Positions 11,247 through 21,183 of a stretch of DNA of 64,000 bases are shown piece by piece (the stretch's first letter is position 1; every line of letters begins with the position of its first letter). The notes beneath the pieces were generated by a model. That model was not told the DNA's origin, searched no databases, and was given only the letters and a program-made list of their open reading frames with translations. The position numbers and the translations under genes are program-made. Source of the DNA: Escherichia phage AnnaHegner_Bas87; the sequence record PQ850594.1; one strand, given 5' to 3'.

Positions 11247-11255
11247 TAATGTATA
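11247..11255 (+). promoter_or_regulatory. TAATGTATA phage-sigma promoter-like element
   Basis: exact TAATGTATA about 37 nt upstream of the 11292 start codon, followed by AAGGAGA RBS. Confidence 0.5.
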
Positions 11256-11291: not shown

Positions 11292-14200
11292 ATGGCTAAT
11301 TTAAAATCGTGGGAAGAAGCTTCCAAAGCTCCTGCGTATCTGAATGCCTCTCCAGAGCAACAGGCTCAAATGAGAGAACAATACAAGGCAGCAGGGGGCA
11401 CTATTCCTGAGACTCAACCACAAGAGCAACCACAACAAGAAGAACGAGGTGTTATTGGGGAGTTTGCTCAAGGTGTGTCTAACGCTCTTCAATCAGGTGG
11501 TGCTAACATTGCAGCTAGTGCTGCTAAAGGTTTAGGTGGGCTGGTAGAGATTGGTGAAAACCTAACTGGTTCGGAAACAAGCTATGGTAAGCGCATTCAA
11601 GAGAACTCTAAGCAATTGCTGGAAGAACGCTTATCTAAGATAGAAGATGGTTTTGGTAAAACAGCTGGTCAGTATGCTGGTGTTGCTGCTGATATTGGTT
11701 TGACAGTTGCAAACCCTGCTGTTGCTGCTGCTGTTATCGCAGCTCGTGAAACAGGTCGTGCTTATGCTGATCAAACTCCTAAAGAAGATGAAGATAAGTC
11801 AATCTTAGATGCTGCTCTTGTTGGTGGTGCTAACTACGCTGCTCAGAAGATACTTCCGGGCATGACTGGTACAGCTTCTACTACTCTAGGTCGTGTAGGA
11901 CAAAGCGTAGCCTCTAACGCGGTTGCTGGTGCTAAGGGTGGTGCTATTGTTGGTGCTGCTGAAGCTCAGAACAAATATGGAGATGATACTACTCTAGCTA
12001 ATGTCTTAGAAGGGGCTATTGAAGAAGGTGCACTCGGTGCCGCTTATGGTGGGGCGATTGGTGGGGTTCATGGGTTAATAAGTCGTCCTAGTCCTCAAGT
12101 GTTTGATCGTACTCCTGAGCATGTTAAGACTGACATTGCTGCTGAAGATGAGGCTATTCGTAAAGCTGCTAACGCTGATGAACTTCGTGAAGCCTATGCT
12201 AAAGCTGAGAATGCTAATGCTGCCTCTGCTTTAAACCTTCTGGATGAAAATGGTTTCCGAATCACAGATGCAGTTGCTATGGACTCTCCTGCTGTTCAAC
12301 GTATATTAAATACAGATCAAAATCGTGCAGAGAAGGCTGCTACGGTTCAGAAAGATAGTTCTAACGTTCCCGGTCTTAATCCTTTAGCTTCTCCTAAGAA
12401 GACTCAAGGTAAAGCTTTTGCGGACAACGAGTACAACCAGAAACAAGCTGTGGCAATGAAAGATGCAATGGCTGACTACACTAAAGATAACACCAAAGCC
12501 CTTACTGATGTTCTAGACAACCTAGACCGAGAGTTAGTAGCTCTGAGAGCAAGTGGTGATTTTACTGGTAGTGCTATTGACATTAAAAACCGTACTCAAG
12601 CTGATCGTGATTTTATTGATGCTTATAAAACTTTTTACAGTGAAGCTAATCGTTTCAAAGCTCGTGATGGTGAAGACCTAAACAACTTCATTGATAAAGC
12701 TACTCAGTTGCAGAAGCTCTCTGAAAATGTTTCTCCAGAAATGAAGAAGGCCATTGGTGGATTAAAGAAACTAAAAGGTATGCCTGAAGGTTTTAACCCT
12801 ATCCAAGATGCTTTCACTCTGAATAATACAGCTAAGTTCATGAGTAACCAAGACCGTGGTTGGACCTCTCTGACTGATGACGGTTTTCGTGAAGCTCCGG
12901 CTCCTGTGTTAGTTAAGAATCCTCTCGGTGCAGCCAAGTATGTACTTAACCGCTTTACTTCCGATCGTGCTCGTGCTCAACGTGAGAAGCAACAGTCAGC
13001 TAATAGTGAAGCTATCCGCTCTTTGGCTAGGGCTGATTTAGAAGTACAACGAGCTAGAACTCAGGCTGAAGAAGCAAGAGCAAAAATGGAAGAAGAACCA
13101 ACTACAGAAGATATCAAATTCCGTACTCAAAATGATGCACCTTCCGAACCGGTTCGTGAGGAGCCTTCTGCTACTACTGTGACGGAAGAAATTCCTTCCT
13201 CTCCAGCTCCAGCTGAAACACCTCTTACTGCGAGGGATTTGGTTGCTCAAAGACGTGCTCTCCAACAAGCAGAGCTTAGACGTCAAGAAGCTGAAGCTGC
13301 TCAGGCTCAAGAAAGTGCTACATCAGAACCTGAACCACAGCAAGAAGCTCTTACAGCTAGAGAATTAGTAGCTCAGCGTAGGGCTGTAGCAGAGGCTAAG
13401 AAACGTCAAGAGGCAGAGGAAGCAGAACGTGCTAAAGAAGCTCCTGAGGAGGCCGTAGAAGAGCCTAAAGAGAAACCTGAGCCATTACCTGCTCGTGCTC
13501 CTAAAGCTCCTGAGAAGGCTCCTGAGCCTGTTAAACCATCACTCGGTGTAGAGCGTCTGGCTTCTATGTCAACTGCTGCCCGTCAGGCAACAAAAGATCG
13601 TGCTGACCGATTTGCTCGTTCTTTGTATTCGGCTGCTGCTAAAGCTAAAGCTACTGCGGAAAACTTCCTTTCTTATAAAGGAGACCCTAAAGAGCTTATG
13701 CGTCGTATCCGTCAGGAAGACCAAGCAAACAACACACAGCGTCATGAAGAGATGGCTAGAAACCAACTAGCTTCACAGCAAGGCATTGCTTCTGCTAAAT
13801 CTCAACATGTTCGTGCTTCTTTTGCTGATTGGGTGAAAGAACGTGGGTTGCCTTCTGATATTGCTACTAAGGCTTTACGGGCTGAAGAGAAAGGTTTAGG
13901 TGGGAACGTCACAAGTCTAGATTCACTGAAGCGAAGAGCTGAGCGTTTATATCAGAAACAAAGAGATGATGAGTTTGACCGTCTCTATAGAGAGGCTCTG
14001 GAAGAGAATAAAGCTTTTGATAAGAGAGATGCTCCTAAACTGGTAGACCAGAAGAAAGAGCTTCAGGATGAAATTGGTGCGTTGCTTGATGCTGAACCGT
14101 TACGTCCTGCTCAGAAAGATGCTATGCGTAGGATTATGGAAGACTTCGTGGAGAGCAAGTTTAAATCTTCAGAGAAAGCTGGAAGGGTTGAGGCTTTGGA

Positions 14201-15737
14201 AGTTGGTCAGATGAAGGATGTGTGGGATGGGTTTATTAATACCTATAACCGAGAAGTTAACATGTTCAACAAGGCTAACAAGAATTCTCAATACGAAGCA
14301 GCAGCTAAACACTTGCAAGCACGTCAAGAACGTCTTGAGACGCTCCGTAACAGAGCTAAGGCTCGCAGTGATGCTAAGGCAGCCATGGAGGCTGAGAAGC
14401 AGTCCTTGGAGGCTATAGCGGCTCAGAAATCAGAGATAGAGAAGATGTTCAAAGAATTGCCTGAAAGTGTCAGAGAGGCTCAGGAAGGGCGTACTTTGAA
14501 ACAGCTTGCTGCTCACCATGATAAGAACTCTCCAGTACCACCGGAGCGTTTCCGTAGTATTATTGAACGTATCCACAACGCTGAGAGTGATTACCTCGAT
14601 CGCAAACGTCGTTTGACCGAAGCAGAGGAAGATGCTCGTGAAGCTAAGTGGAACAGGATGTATGAACAGGCTGAGGAAATGAACCGTAGGTTTGATATCG
14701 ATGCTAGAGTGAAGAGAGATAAAGCTCTAAAGGAAGCTCAAGAACGAGAGAATGACTTAATGGCAGTTCAACGTCAGCGTGATGACATTCATAAGCGTTT
14801 AGTCAATACTCTGGAAGAGAAGGGAGTTTCTAGGGAAGATGCTGAAGCGTATGCTGGGTCTTACATGGATAATCGGTATGCTTTGTTAGAGAAACCAATG
14901 ACTCCAGTGGAACACCAGAATGCTCGTGCTCGTATTGAATCTGACGTAGAGAAGTTTGTTAAGAAATACGAAACAGCTACTCCAATCGAAAGAGAGATCG
15001 CTAAAGCAACTGGTGATGTAGATGGGAAACCTTCTGACTTAGATGCAGAAACATTAAAAGCTATCGAAGATGCTCGTAAAGTTGATTCCGATTTTAAGAA
15101 ACTCTTAGATGAAGAGAAGGAAATGGAGAAGATTCGTTCAGCTCTACCTGAAGATGAAAGATCTCAGGCGAACTCTGATATTCTGGAAAGTATCAAGAAA
15201 CAGGAAGATGATTTTGCTAGCAAAGCAGAGAAAGCTTTTATTGAAGGGAAGGATTTGCAGGAGTTAGCGAGTGTTGCAGAAGTTCTAGATAGGGTTCATG
15301 GTGCAGACAAGGCTGGTAACAACCGTCGATTTGTACGTGCTCTACAGACTGCTGCCGAGAACAAGAAACGTTATGGGGATAATCCAGTGGCTTGGTTTAG
15401 TGCTGATGATTACTCTGCTATTGCGAAACTTGGTGCTGCTTCGGCAGGTGGTAACAAATCTCGAGCACTTGAGAAAATCTTTGGTTCTACAGCAGAACAA
15501 GCTAAAGGGAAACTTTTAGGGCGGGATGATGTAGCTAAGATTAGGCGTGTGATTGAAGCGAATCCTAATGTTAAGATTCCTTCTTACAAGACAACTACTC
15601 GACAAGAGTACATGCAGTTCTTGGAGAAGTATAATGACGAGGGAGAGTTGAAAGTCAAACGTGGTTCTCTGTCTGACAAGTTGGAGAGAGGTAAGCGTCA
15701 AGCCAAACTCCGTGTTAGAGTTCGAGCTAAAGAGTAA
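11292..15737 (+). CDS. giant internal virion / ejection protein
   Basis: 1481 aa; Ala/Gly-rich N-terminus, long Glu/Lys/Arg coiled coil, internal ~30 aa direct repeat (LTAR-D/E-LVAQRRA). Confidence 0.45.
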   Translation: MANLKSWEEASKAPAYLNASPEQQAQMREQYKAAGGTIPETQPQEQPQQEERGVIGEFAQGVSNALQSGGANIAASAAKGLGGLVEIGENLTGSETSYGKRIQENSKQLLEERLSKIEDGFGKTAGQYAGVAADIGLTVANPAVAAAVIAARETGRAYADQTPKEDEDKSILDAALVGGANYAAQKILPGMTGTASTTLGRVGQSVASNAVAGAKGGAIVGAAEAQNKYGDDTTLANVLEGAIEEGALGAAYGGAIGGVHGLISRPSPQVFDRTPEHVKTDIAAEDEAIRKAANADELREAYAKAENANAASALNLLDENGFRITDAVAMDSPAVQRILNTDQNRAEKAATVQKDSSNVPGLNPLASPKKTQGKAFADNEYNQKQAVAMKDAMADYTKDNTKALTDVLDNLDRELVALRASGDFTGSAIDIKNRTQADRDFIDAYKTFYSEANRFKARDGEDLNNFIDKATQLQKLSENVSPEMKKAIGGLKKLKGMPEGFNPIQDAFTLNNTAKFMSNQDRGWTSLTDDGFREAPAPVLVKNPLGAAKYVLNRFTSDRARAQREKQQSANSEAIRSLARADLEVQRARTQAEEARAKMEEEPTTEDIKFRTQNDAPSEPVREEPSATTVTEEIPSSPAPAETPLTARDLVAQRRALQQAELRRQEAEAAQAQESATSEPEPQQEALTARELVAQRRAVAEAKKRQEAEEAERAKEAPEEAVEEPKEKPEPLPARAPKAPEKAPEPVKPSLGVERLASMSTAARQATKDRADRFARSLYSAAAKAKATAENFLSYKGDPKELMRRIRQEDQANNTQRHEEMARNQLASQQGIASAKSQHVRASFADWVKERGLPSDIATKALRAEEKGLGGNVTSLDSLKRRAERLYQKQRDDEFDRLYREALEENKAFDKRDAPKLVDQKKELQDEIGALLDAEPLRPAQKDAMRRIMEDFVESKFKSSEKAGRVEALEVGQMKDVWDGFINTYNREVNMFNKANKNSQYEAAAKHLQARQERLETLRNRAKARSDAKAAMEAEKQSLEAIAAQKSEIEKMFKELPESVREAQEGRTLKQLAAHHDKNSPVPPERFRSIIERIHNAESDYLDRKRRLTEAEEDAREAKWNRMYEQAEEMNRRFDIDARVKRDKALKEAQERENDLMAVQRQRDDIHKRLVNTLEEKGVSREDAEAYAGSYMDNRYALLEKPMTPVEHQNARARIESDVEKFVKKYETATPIEREIAKATGDVDGKPSDLDAETLKAIEDARKVDSDFKKLLDEEKEMEKIRSALPEDERSQANSDILESIKKQEDDFASKAEKAFIEGKDLQELASVAEVLDRVHGADKAGNNRRFVRALQTAAENKKRYGDNPVAWFSADDYSAIAKLGAASAGGNKSRALEKIFGSTAEQAKGKLLGRDDVAKIRRVIEANPNVKIPSYKTTTRQEYMQFLEKYNDEGELKVKRGSLSDKLERGKRQAKLRVRVRAKE

Positions 15738-15790
15738 ACAAAAAAAGCCCCCAACCTGTAAAAAGGAAGGGGGCTTCTTTATTTCTAGAT
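15738..15790. terminator. bidirectional terminator between convergent blocks
   Basis: AGCCCCC...GGGGGCT hairpin with A-run on the left and T-rich on the right. Confidence 0.6.
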
Positions 15791-15842
15791 GTTAGAATCC
15801 ATCGAATTCATCACACATCCCAATTTTCTTCTTCGAAGTCAA

Positions 15843-16109
15843 TCATAAGACCTCCCAATCATCTGCAAATAAATCACCCTGAGATGGAACCCATCCGGGT
15901 TGCATAATACCCTGAGCATTCTTTAAGTCTAAATGAGGGGCGATAGTGAATCGACCTGTGATGCCAGCTTTTTCATAATCAGAACCCGGTCGAGCTTCTT
16001 CTACTTCATATCCACCTGCTTTGATGACGAACTGATTTGCACCATTCCAACCAGAACGAGCAATCTTCTTACCTTCTTTTACTTTAATAAGTGCTGAACT
16101 AAAATCCAT
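15843..16109 (-). CDS. DUF2829-family protein, Tad2-like anti-defence candidate
   Basis: MDFSSALIKVKEGKKIARSGWNG ... PGWVPSQGDLFADDWEVL matches my recollection of the DUF2829 signature. Confidence 0.55.
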   Translation of the reverse strand: MDFSSALIKVKEGKKIARSGWNGANQFVIKAGGYEVEEARPGSDYEKAGITGRFTIAPHLDLKNAQGIMQPGWVPSQGDLFADDWEVL

Positions 16110-16117
16110 TTGTTCTC

Positions 16118-16420
16118 CTAGATTAAATCATAATACTTAATAATATCGGAGAGCTTAAACTCTCGAATGTCATTCTTGTCGTTGTCCCAAGCGGTCATTA
16201 TCCAACAAGGTTTGCCCCCATTATGATAGCGGGAAGAAGCAACTGAGGTTCGTAAAGGAATAACGGAGCGGTCTGCAACTTCACCTCTCCAATTACGATA
16301 GCTAAAGCGAAGAACTTGTTTCGTAGATACTTGATCATGTGTGTTTTCCTTGTTCATAGATTCAAAGACTTCTCTTTCTTCAGGAGTCTCTAGATTTTTT
16401 AAATTCACGTCTTGCATCAT
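16118..16420 (-). CDS. hypothetical protein
   Basis: AAGGAAG RBS before ATGATG start; no recognisable motif. Confidence 0.4.
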   Translation of the reverse strand: MMQDVNLKNLETPEEREVFESMNKENTHDQVSTKQVLRFSYRNWRGEVADRSVIPLRTSVASSRYHNGGKPCWIMTAWDNDKNDIREFKLSDIIKYYDLI

Positions 16421-16784
16421 TCTCTTCCTTAGTTTTTATCTTATGGCAAGGCTCTTTGCATAAGACTTGAAAACCATCTTTCTCAACTAAAGCCCTCTCG
16501 ATGATTTCATCCCAAGTAGCTTCATGGTCCACTGGAACAATAGGCTCTACATGGTCTACTGCTACGTCTTTAAGAGGAGAATCATTACCACACATGGCGC
16601 ATTTGTAATGCATTGCCAGTTTGCCAGTTTTAGGGTTGATTTTACGTTCTGTCTGAGCCTCTTTGAGAGAATCAAACATAGGTTTCCATTTCCTAGTCAG
16701 AGAACGAATCCCTGACTTAATGAAGGAGTTATAACGTGCTTCAGTCCACTGACCAGAGCATCTTGTCTTCTCAGCTTTCGCCAT
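16380..16784 (-). CDS. HNH endonuclease
   Basis: CAMCG...VAVDHVEPIVPVDHE...LCKEPCHKIK, HNH with Cys pairs. Confidence 0.6.
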   Translation of the reverse strand: MAKAEKTRCSGQWTEARYNSFIKSGIRSLTRKWKPMFDSLKEAQTERKINPKTGKLAMHYKCAMCGNDSPLKDVAVDHVEPIVPVDHEATWDEIIERALVEKDGFQVLCKEPCHKIKTKEENDARREFKKSRDS

Positions 16785-16962: not shown

Positions 16963-16972
16963 TATAATATCC

Positions 16973-17818
16973 TTATTCCCAAGTTTTATCTAACCATGAC
17001 CAATCAAAGAGGTCACCTTCAGCTTGTCCAACGAAGAGCAATCGAGCGTTTTCTAACATCTTATCTTCTGCTTCTTCCTCGAACCTCTTATAGTATTCCA
17101 TTCGTATAATATGATAAAGAGTCCACTTATCGAATACCTTCTCAATAAGTTTGATTGCAGCCTTGCTACCAATGCCTTTACGACGCATTACTAGATTGCC
17201 ACCCCACATCATTTCAACCTTCTCACCACATCCGGGAATGTTATCTGTGCTATCCCCGATCAGCATCTGGTAGAAGAAGTTCTGCCATGCTACTTCCTCT
17301 GGTACATAGTGGGGAGGTACTTCTTTCTGTCTCTCCCCGCAAGCCCAACGGTAATGCCATCCGGGGGTGATTAACAAATCTTTATCACGGGTGCAAATGA
17401 TAGTGTTCTTATCACGTCTCTGTCTTTCAGCTAAGGCATCATCTGCCTCTCTCCCAAAAACTTCAACGAATTCATAATTCTCTTTAATGTAATCACTGAC
17501 ATTTTGCCAGTGGTGAGGTCTTTCTCCCGGTGGTCGATTAGCTTTATAACCTTGCTGCTTAGCAATATCAAACCGAAAATTACCACCTTCGCTGAAGTAA
17601 AAGATTGTTTTCTCGCAACCAGACCTTGCAATGATTACATCTATTTTATGTTGAAGTCGTTCAATCAAGAATCCATAATCAACTGGAACACGACCTGTGT
17701 CTAGAAAAGGATGCTCTTGTGTAAGAGCACCGACTTCATATCGCAGAACATCTGCATCCACAATTGCTACTTCAGGATAGATTACATCAGACATAGAGAC
17801 CTCTCCGTGTCCCTTCAA
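16973..17818 (-). CDS. 5'-3' exonuclease / flap endonuclease (T7 gp6-like)
   Basis: IVDADVL, READDALA, GDSTDNIPG and GIGSKAA motifs of the FEN/5'-nuclease family. Confidence 0.8.
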   Translation of the reverse strand: MKGHGEVSMSDVIYPEVAIVDADVLRYEVGALTQEHPFLDTGRVPVDYGFLIERLQHKIDVIIARSGCEKTIFYFSEGGNFRFDIAKQQGYKANRPPGERPHHWQNVSDYIKENYEFVEVFGREADDALAERQRRDKNTIICTRDKDLLITPGWHYRWACGERQKEVPPHYVPEEVAWQNFFYQMLIGDSTDNIPGCGEKVEMMWGGNLVMRRKGIGSKAAIKLIEKVFDKWTLYHIIRMEYYKRFEEEAEDKMLENARLLFVGQAEGDLFDWSWLDKTWE

Positions 17819-20329: not shown

Positions 20330-20351
20330 AAAAAAGCCACCCAAAGGTGGC
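20330..20351 (-). terminator. rho-independent terminator (minus strand)
   Basis: GCCACC-CAAA-GGTGGC hairpin followed on the minus strand by a T-run. Confidence 0.6.
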
Positions 20352-20374
20352 TAAGCTATTACAAGGAGAGATTC

Positions 20375-21174: not shown

Positions 21175-21183
21175 TATACATTA
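21175..21183 (-). promoter_or_regulatory. TAATGTATA promoter-like element (minus strand)
   Basis: exact motif about 60 nt upstream of the 21115 start. Confidence 0.5.

Follow-up and report, generated by a model that had tools for sequence, protein, structure and literature searches.

Tad2 proteins form a family of phage anti-defense proteins whose founding member, SPO1 Tad2 (Gp34.65; 8SME/8SMF/8SMG), sequesters 1''-3' and 1''-2' gcADPR. In this protein, 1''-3' gcADPR is contacted directly by W25, N26, W73 and D79, T78 forms a hydrogen bond with the adenine, I63 and T65 provide non-polar contacts, and D67, H71 and S76 act through water (10.1101/2023.05.01.538930). ModTad2, encoded in a prophage of Myoviroides odoratus (9EIB/8V3E), sequesters His-ADPR of type II Thoeris as well as the Pycsar signals cUMP and cCMP, and HgmTad2/AcrIIA7 and SptTad2 (8KBI-8KBM, 8WJD) bind cyclic dinucleotides (CDNs) in addition to gcADPR. 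The gcADPR contacts of HgmTad2 are W21, N22, G23, M76, A78, T82, V84, W87, L88, S90, T92 and D93, and its CDN pocket involves a 41 aa insertion between beta2 and beta5, with R31, S47, F70 and N85 as validated contacts (PMC10680739). The ligands of Tad2 homologs thus range over 3'cADPR, His-ADPR, N7-cADPR, cyclic dinucleotides and cUMP/cCMP, and family membership alone does not fix the ligand (PMC12393519). Type I Thoeris was inhibited by four out of five tested Tad2 homologs, and only about 1% of Tad2 proteins are predicted to be non-functional for gcADPR binding. Among sponge homologs that have been tested, 65 out of 84 inhibited at least one system and 19 inhibited none of seven. A further 3'cADPR sponge family, Sequestin, was discovered through its fusions to Tad2 and Acb4, and 10 of its 13 tested members inhibit type I Thoeris by sequestering 3'cADPR (PMC12265669).

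Here we describe a Tad2-like gene in Escherichia phage AnnaHegner_Bas87 (PQ850594.1), a Gordonclarkvirinae (phiEco32/SU7-like) E. coli podophage; the whole stretch of DNA that was analyzed, 64,000 nucleotides in length, is called the window. The region at 13-20 kb is 95.9% identical to Bas86 and 92-97% identical to SU7, PAS59, NC-B, EK010 and E20-1. A literature search that combined Tad2 with Kuravirus found no papers.

The Tad2-like gene and its family

The gene and its ribosome binding site are located as follows.

15843..16109, minus strand, stop codon included: Tad2-like (PF11195/DUF2829) gene for an 88 aa protein, based on the ORF, Pfam, PDB sequence matches, AlphaFold2/Foldseek and dN/dS
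16115..16118, minus strand: GGAG Shine-Dalgarno of the Tad2-like gene, 5 nt upstream of the ATG, read from the sequence

The first G of this GGAG is also the final base of the TAG stop codon of the upstream gene. From its ATG, the ORF specifies the 88 aa product MDFSSALIKVKEGKKIARSGWNGANQFVIKAGGYEVEEARPGSDYEKAGITGRFTIAPHLDLKNAQGIMQPGWVPSQGDLFADDWEVL, and the two motifs that had been quoted in the preliminary description are present in it, together with the ORF and the product length given there: F3..A6L7..V10K11.G13K14K15.A17R18.G20W21 at the N-terminus and P71GWVPSQGDLFADDWE86 at the C-terminus. Pairwise Nei-Gojobori comparison with the orthologs of Bas86 and NC-B gave a dN/dS of 0.14-0.16, and the gene is under purifying selection at a ratio of about 0.15. 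Given these ratios and the presence of PF11195 in all 84 homologs recovered from 5.8 billion proteins, this is a real, maintained coding sequence and not a chance ORF. In the GenBank records of relatives the protein is labeled "hypothetical protein," its PHROGs assignment (phrog_1048/872) reads "unknown function," and the UniRef cluster of one homolog is already titled "Thoeris anti-defense 2-li…".

The assignment to DUF2829/Tad2, proposed earlier from the motifs, is borne out by profile, sequence and structure comparisons. A search with the DUF2829 profile, fixed beforehand as the test of this assignment, returned a strong match to PF11195 ("Thoeris anti-defense 2-like domain," formerly DUF2829; E 2.2e-23, 83 bits against a curated cutoff of 25 bits), spanning positions 1-73 of the 73 in the profile and residues 1-88 of the protein. 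With phmmer, the protein matched the PDB sequences of SptTad2 and ModTad2 (both E 2.4e-9), HgmTad2/AcrIIA7 (8kbi, E 1.7e-8) and SPO1 Tad2 (E 5e-8), and the AcrIIA7 entry 9kzr was matched by sequence at E 3e-7. An AlphaFold2 monomer model built from 68 clade sequences (mean pLDDT 95.5, pTM 0.82) places a helix at residues 3-11, five or more strands and a helix at 77-81, which predicts the Tad2 fold with its N-terminal helix, antiparallel beta-sheet and short C-terminal helix between the last strands. When this high-confidence model was compared with the PDB by Foldseek, all 24 matches at E<=1e-3 were Tad2 structures (TM 0.67-0.80), the 25th match reaching only E 0.88. By sequence and by model, membership of the Tad2 family is hence as secure as computation allows. 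The family is a large one, since an exhaustive HMMER search yielded 2,584 cluster representatives (50% identity) at E<=1e-3, and the 88 aa protein is an ordinary additional member that Pfam identifies at once and that would not surprise a specialist.

The signal pocket

Contact residues known from the solved structures were mapped onto the 88 aa protein by HMMER alignments, with the following correspondences.

SPO1 W25, HgmTad2 W21: Bas87 W21, conserved
SPO1 N26, HgmTad2 N22: Bas87 N22, conserved
no SPO1 contact, HgmTad2 G23: Bas87 G23, conserved
SPO1 W73, HgmTad2 W87: Bas87 W73, conserved
SPO1 S76, HgmTad2 S90: Bas87 S76, conserved
SPO1 D79, HgmTad2 D93: Bas87 D79, conserved
SPO1 T78, HgmTad2 T92: Bas87 G78, changed
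SPO1 I63, HgmTad2 M76: Bas87 L62
SPO1 T65, HgmTad2 A78: Bas87 N64
SPO1 D67, no HgmTad2 contact: Bas87 Q66
SPO1 H71, HgmTad2 V84: Bas87 Q70

The canonical core is found in both of its parts, W-N-G in the beta1-beta2 loop and W..S..D in the C-terminal segment, and compared with SPO1 Tad2 there is an extra residue, P71, before the pocket tryptophan. In the 68-sequence clade alignment, W21, N22, W73, S76, D79 and W85 are invariant, and G23, N64, Q66, Q70, P71, G72 and G78 are conserved in at least 90% of the sequences. At the position of the threonine that contacts the adenine (SPO1 T78, HgmTad2 T92), at least 90% of the clade thus have a glycine, Gly78 in the Bas87 protein. This replacement bears on ligand specificity and not on membership, as the threonine is not strictly family-defining given that the His-ADPR binder ModTad2 has a serine there. 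Judged from these alignments, the canonical pocket core is intact, and the lining around it is a stable signature of the clade rather than a lesion.

Proposed function and ligand

We consider it likely that the protein is a Tad2-family sponge of a TIR-derived, ADPR-based signal, homotetrameric and with 3'cADPR as the first ligand to be considered, that prevents activation of the Thoeris effector. By analogy with solved members of the family, four copies would assemble into a homotetramer carrying two pockets at the interface between non-dimeric protomers. Each pocket, to which the beta1-beta2 loop (W21-N22-G23) and, near the C-terminus, W73-x-x-S76-x-x-D79 are predicted to contribute, would sequester one molecule of an ADP-ribose-derived alarm signal produced by a TIR protein, the likeliest being 3'cADPR (1''-3' gcADPR) of type I Thoeris, with His-ADPR (type II Thoeris) or N7-cADPR (type IV) as alternative or additional ligands. 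With the signal sequestered, the Thoeris effector would stay unactivated and the infection would proceed. The wording "candidate sponge" of the preliminary description is pitched at the right level for this, with family membership speaking for it and the function itself argued from characterized homologs.

Many of the closest proteins recovered by the exhaustive search have two domains, with a Tad2-like domain joined to PF21825 (Sequestin); in P0048, P0086 and P0089, the Tad2 domain is 75%, 72% and 58% identical to the Bas87 protein, respectively. These fusions tie the clade to the sequestration of immune signals, and they could mean that its Tad2 half covers a different ligand. A scan of 94 small ORFs of the window found 31 families, and among the 25 listed there was no homolog of PF21825 or Acb4 and no other sponge family. 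Because of Gly78, the clade's own lining (N64/Q66/Q70/P71) and the repeated fusion to Sequestin, we raise the tentative and rather doubtful idea that the QPGWVPSQGD clade of enterobacterial phages may bind a ligand distinct from that of SPO1 Tad2, be it His-ADPR, N7-cADPR, or an undescribed TIR or other signal. If this were true, the protein could serve as bait for isolating the signal from infected Enterobacteriaceae.

The binding of cyclic oligonucleotides of CBASS, also suggested at the outset, receives no support from conservation of a pocket of the HgmTad2 type. The beta2-beta5 insertion comprises about 27 aa, against 24 aa in SPO1 Tad2 and 35-41 aa in CDN binders, and R31, F70 and N85 of HgmTad2 correspond to A31, I56 and P71, so that three of the four validated CDN contacts are changed; the fourth, S47, falls in an unaligned part. 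With its short insertion and these differences, a pocket of this type is ruled out by the alignment, which places the protein outside the long-insertion, CDN-binding subtype represented by HgmTad2 and SptTad2.

CBASS is more frequent than Thoeris in E. coli. This frequency, the clade-specific pocket lining with Gly78, and the existence of close relatives joined to a 3'cADPR sponge, in which two halves with the same 3'cADPR ligand would duplicate each other, would all suit a Tad2-fold sponge acting mainly on CBASS cyclic dinucleotides, on cCMP/cUMP of Pycsar or on an unknown signal, possibly via a second pocket at the dimer interface. Individual Tad2 homologs do inhibit CBASS or Pycsar, and ModTad2, which is equal in size and the top structural match, binds cUMP at the dimer interface despite a short insertion (PMC12393519). 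We nevertheless regard a principal ligand of this kind as unlikely, given the CDN contacts and insertion length described above and a canonical ADPR-signal pocket core that is invariant in the clade, which argues for a pocket in use.

Genome context and transcription

The gene stands at the end of a leftward block that encodes, in the order of transcription, a sigma factor (gp36 homolog), a dNMP kinase, a 5'-3' exonuclease, a 63 aa ORF, an HNH endonuclease, a 100 aa WYL-domain protein and the Tad2-like protein. The features that surround it are as follows.

15741..15780, bidirectional: intrinsic terminator hairpin (dG -25.8 kcal/mol, z -4.19, by RNA folding)
15788..15814, minus strand: mini-ORF of 8 codons, MNSMDSNI and stop, its start overlapping the previous stop (ATGA)
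15811..15846, minus strand: mini-ORF of 11 codons, MIDFEEENWDV and stop, its ATG overlapping the Tad2-like stop (ATGA)
16118..16420, minus strand: 100 aa stand-alone WYL-domain protein, the upstream neighbor (PF13280, E 3.6e-6)
16964..16992, minus strand: weak sigma-70-like site TAGATA-17-TATTAT (9/12), a consensus match only, coinciding in position with an annotated SU7 promoter
21175..21183, minus strand: exact TAATGTATA, a putative promoter corresponding to the phiEco32 gp36-type middle/late element, upstream of the block of the Tad2-like gene

The terminator hairpin is common to the minus-strand operon and to a convergent plus-strand gene for a 1481 aa protein that ends at 15737, and the SU7 record shows a terminator on each strand at the equivalent site. 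A consensus terminator scan missed the hairpin, presumably owing to its internal loops; folding confirmed it. The earlier statement that the Tad2-like gene is the last of the minus-strand operon is essentially right, as the terminator follows downstream, but two conserved tiny ORFs of 11 and 8 codons lie in between, and the gene is better described as the last one of any size in the leftward cluster of middle genes. The convergent gene (11292-15737, plus strand) encodes a highly charged, Ala/Glu/Lys-rich protein, probably a virion or ejection protein, which the records of relatives name "hypothetical" or "putative liver stage antigen."

The mini-ORF region is conserved in all Gordonclarkvirinae relatives examined, regardless of what precedes it, and the mini-ORFs are candidates for a micro-peptide, a translational-coupling device or an RNA element. 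The SU10 version reads MNIQTSEENWDV before its stop, that of Bas86 has an in-frame deletion of 6 nt and a GTG start, and in ShigP1 the stop of the Tad2-like gene is lost, with readthrough fusing the Tad2-like protein to the first mini-ORF. An origin of the mini-ORF as a remnant of an SU10-type DUF7438 gene was rejected, since SU10 possesses both the DUF7438 gene and a copy of the mini-ORF. An Rfam scan of 15600-16500 gave only sub-threshold sRNA matches that overlap the terminator hairpin. Between the terminator and the mini-ORFs, E20-1, SU7 and ECBP2 carry a non-coding insert of about 114 nt (insertion point at about 15790 of the window), which the window, Bas86 and UKE3 lack and which occurs independently of the Tad2-like gene.

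The upstream WYL-domain protein lacks an HTH and is present in every relative examined, and it has only 17 homologs in the collection of 5.8 billion proteins. A PDB sequence search with it gave chance-level matches only; the top PDB matches of its AlphaFold2 model (pLDDT 78, above 85 for residues 35-100) are the WYL domains of PafBC, BrxR, CapW and DriD. These regulators respond to ssDNA or ligands, and BREX, CBASS and DNA-damage responses are under their control. Speculatively, a bare WYL domain encoded beside a sponge could act on such regulators as a decoy or as a sink for their ligands. Its start is overlapped by 41 nt by the HNH endonuclease gene (16380-16784, minus strand, 134 aa, phrog_3106), which several GenBank records wrongly label "terminase small subunit."

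The leftward cluster of phiEco32 that contains the sigma factor and the genes of nucleotide metabolism belongs to the middle class, transcribed by the gp36 holoenzyme from promoters that consist of a single element, tAATGTAtA (PMC8948821). Exact copies of TAATGTATA occur four times in the window, at 11247 (+), 21175 (-), 21246 (+) and 27525 (-), against about 0.5 expected by our own arithmetic with equal base frequencies; copies with one mismatch are not enriched in the window (25 found, 20 expected), and only exact copies were used as evidence. The elements at 21175 (-) and 21246 (+) point away from each other at a distance of about 70 bp, the one at 11247 (+) lies 45 nt upstream of the 1481 aa gene, and these positions are in keeping with reports of conserved promoter positions in phiEco32-like phages. 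Between the 21175 motif, the sole exact gp36-type motif upstream of the block, and the Tad2-like gene there is a terminator-like hairpin at 20335-20352, which may interrupt the transcript, and the sigma-70-like site at 16964-16992 could act as a proximal promoter of the last four genes. Because this hairpin and this site lie in between, the transcript that carries the Tad2-like gene is one that we infer. The position of the gene in a phiEco32-type leftward cluster suggests that it would be expressed alongside the middle genes, and its place in a predicted middle cluster, not an early one, was counted against the sponge explanation.

A variable cargo slot

When a 1 kb query centered on the gene was compared with related records, 8 of about 102, representing seven phages, covered the gene fully: EK010 (twice), E20-1, Bas86, NC-B, TH43, Bas88 and ShigP1, with the protein of E20-1 being identical to that of Bas87. 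In the relatives examined, the slot, whose fixed upstream edge is the WYL-like gene, differs in content.

UKE3, ECBP2, SU7: no gene annotated
PAS59: 167 aa HNH_3 endonuclease
ShigP1: Tad2-like gene (63% identity) and 121 aa HNH endonuclease
SU10: 53 aa DUF7438 protein

Many Kuravirus records with a span of about 930 bp probably share the SU10-type slot, and the interval that separates the WYL-like gene from the mini-ORFs is a hot spot for cargo genes in Gordonclarkvirinae. Alignment with relatives that lack the gene delimits a clean presence/absence segment of 263 nt with GGAG repeats at both ends, the upstream one being the gene's own ribosome binding site (16115..16118) and the other lying within the gene.

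15852..15855, minus strand: second GGAG, inside codons W85-E86, at the downstream edge of the 263-nt segment absent in UKE3/SU7/ECBP2-type phages

The second GGAG serves also as the ribosome binding site of the downstream mini-ORF, and phages without the Tad2-like gene keep its last 13 nt (GGAGGTCTTATGA). Either loss or gain of the segment fits the alignment, and recombination at the 4-nt GGAG repeat would account for the gain and loss of an optional cargo gene in this slot. Exchange between phage lineages is shown by a copy with 83% identity in the unrelated 42 kb Murrayvirus phage sortsyn, saturated in synonymous divergence and again the last operon gene before a convergent gene. When 5,426 complete E. 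coli genomes were searched with the gene by blastn, none matched, and the search gave no evidence at the DNA level of an E. coli prophage source.

Sporadic occupancy of a hot spot under purifying selection is typical of anti-defense cargo, and the slot also hosts selfish HNH genes. Since selfish endonucleases occupy the same slot, most relatives lack the Tad2-like gene and 19 of the 84 tested sponge homologs showed no activity, one may ask whether a Tad2-fold protein without a current anti-defense role, as hitch-hiking, decaying or co-opted cargo, would explain the locus. In addition, Bas86, the closest relative, was isolated on a K-12 host whose known defenses had been partly removed (PMC11990801), and the gene would therefore be dispensable for growth on that host; the BASEL paper makes no mention of Thoeris or CBASS (PMC11990801). 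Such an explanation is distinctly improbable in view of the distribution just described and of a dN/dS of about 0.15, an intact ORF, a good ribosome binding site and pocket residues that are invariant in 68 homologs, which indicate a maintained ligand-binding function.

To our knowledge, E. coli has type I and not type II CRISPR-Cas, and we know of no plausible Cas9 target in this host. Together with a published re-test this host biology led us to reject, as hardly credible, an AcrIIA7-type anti-CRISPR that inhibits type II-A Cas9: AcrIIA7 proteins share the domain and match in sequence (8kbi, E 1.7e-8; 9kzr, E 3e-7), but HgmTad2/AcrIIA7 and other homologs were without anti-Cas9 activity when re-tested in vitro and in vivo (PMC10680739), and the group that discovered Tad2 came to the conclusion that proteins with DUF2829 act against Thoeris and not against CRISPR.

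A sponge of a TIR-derived signal, the reading that we prefer, would add a confidently assigned Tad2-family candidate to Gordonclarkvirinae, abundant E. coli podophages of therapeutic interest that are reported to be highly resistant to tested defense systems and whose anti-defense genes are essentially unannotated. A public collection holds natural presence/absence pairs, Bas86 and Bas88 with the gene and Bas90 and Bas91 with a slot of about 930 bp of the SU10-group type (DUF7438 in the SU10 group), and the role of signal sponges in host range is therefore directly testable in E. coli. The protein leaves the current understanding of the Tad2 family unchanged, and the altered pocket of its clade is a reasonable candidate in the search for determinants of Tad2 specificity.

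Comparison with known Tad2 proteins

The Bas87 protein resembles SPO1 Tad2 in Pfam family, size (88 vs. 89 aa), fold (TM 0.67-0.74), an identical VPSQ segment, a short beta2-beta5 insertion (about 27 vs. 24 aa) and the pocket residues W25/N26/W73/S76/D79, which correspond to W21/N22/W73/S76/D79. It differs in overall sequence, with an identity of about 30%, in the change of T78 to G78, and in having L62, N64, Q66 and Q70 in place of I63, T65, D67 and H71; moreover, the host lineage is that of a Gram-negative podophage, whereas SPO1 is a Bacillus myophage. ModTad2 ranks first among the structural matches (E 3.7e-8, TM 0.76) and shares first place by sequence (E 2.4e-9); it has the same length and the invariant W/N/W/S/D core, and likewise lacks a threonine at the adenine-contact position, with serine in ModTad2 and glycine in the Bas87 protein. 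However, the two are only 32% identical, the C-terminal segment reads TWTPSVSD in ModTad2 and GWVPSQGD here, and the pocket lining differs.

With HgmTad2/AcrIIA7 and SptTad2 the protein has in common the family, the core of the gcADPR pocket and the spacing before the pocket tryptophan (G-x-x-x-x-G-W), in contrast to the insertion of their CDN pocket (35-41 aa vs. about 27 aa) and to R31, F70 and N85, which are A31, I56 and P71 in the Bas87 protein. The Tad2-Sequestin fusions (PF11195+PF21825) all carry the QPGWVPSQGD signature of the clade, but the Bas87 protein is a stand-alone domain. In architecture its closest counterparts are SPO1 Tad2 and ModTad2, the short stand-alone forms of the family.
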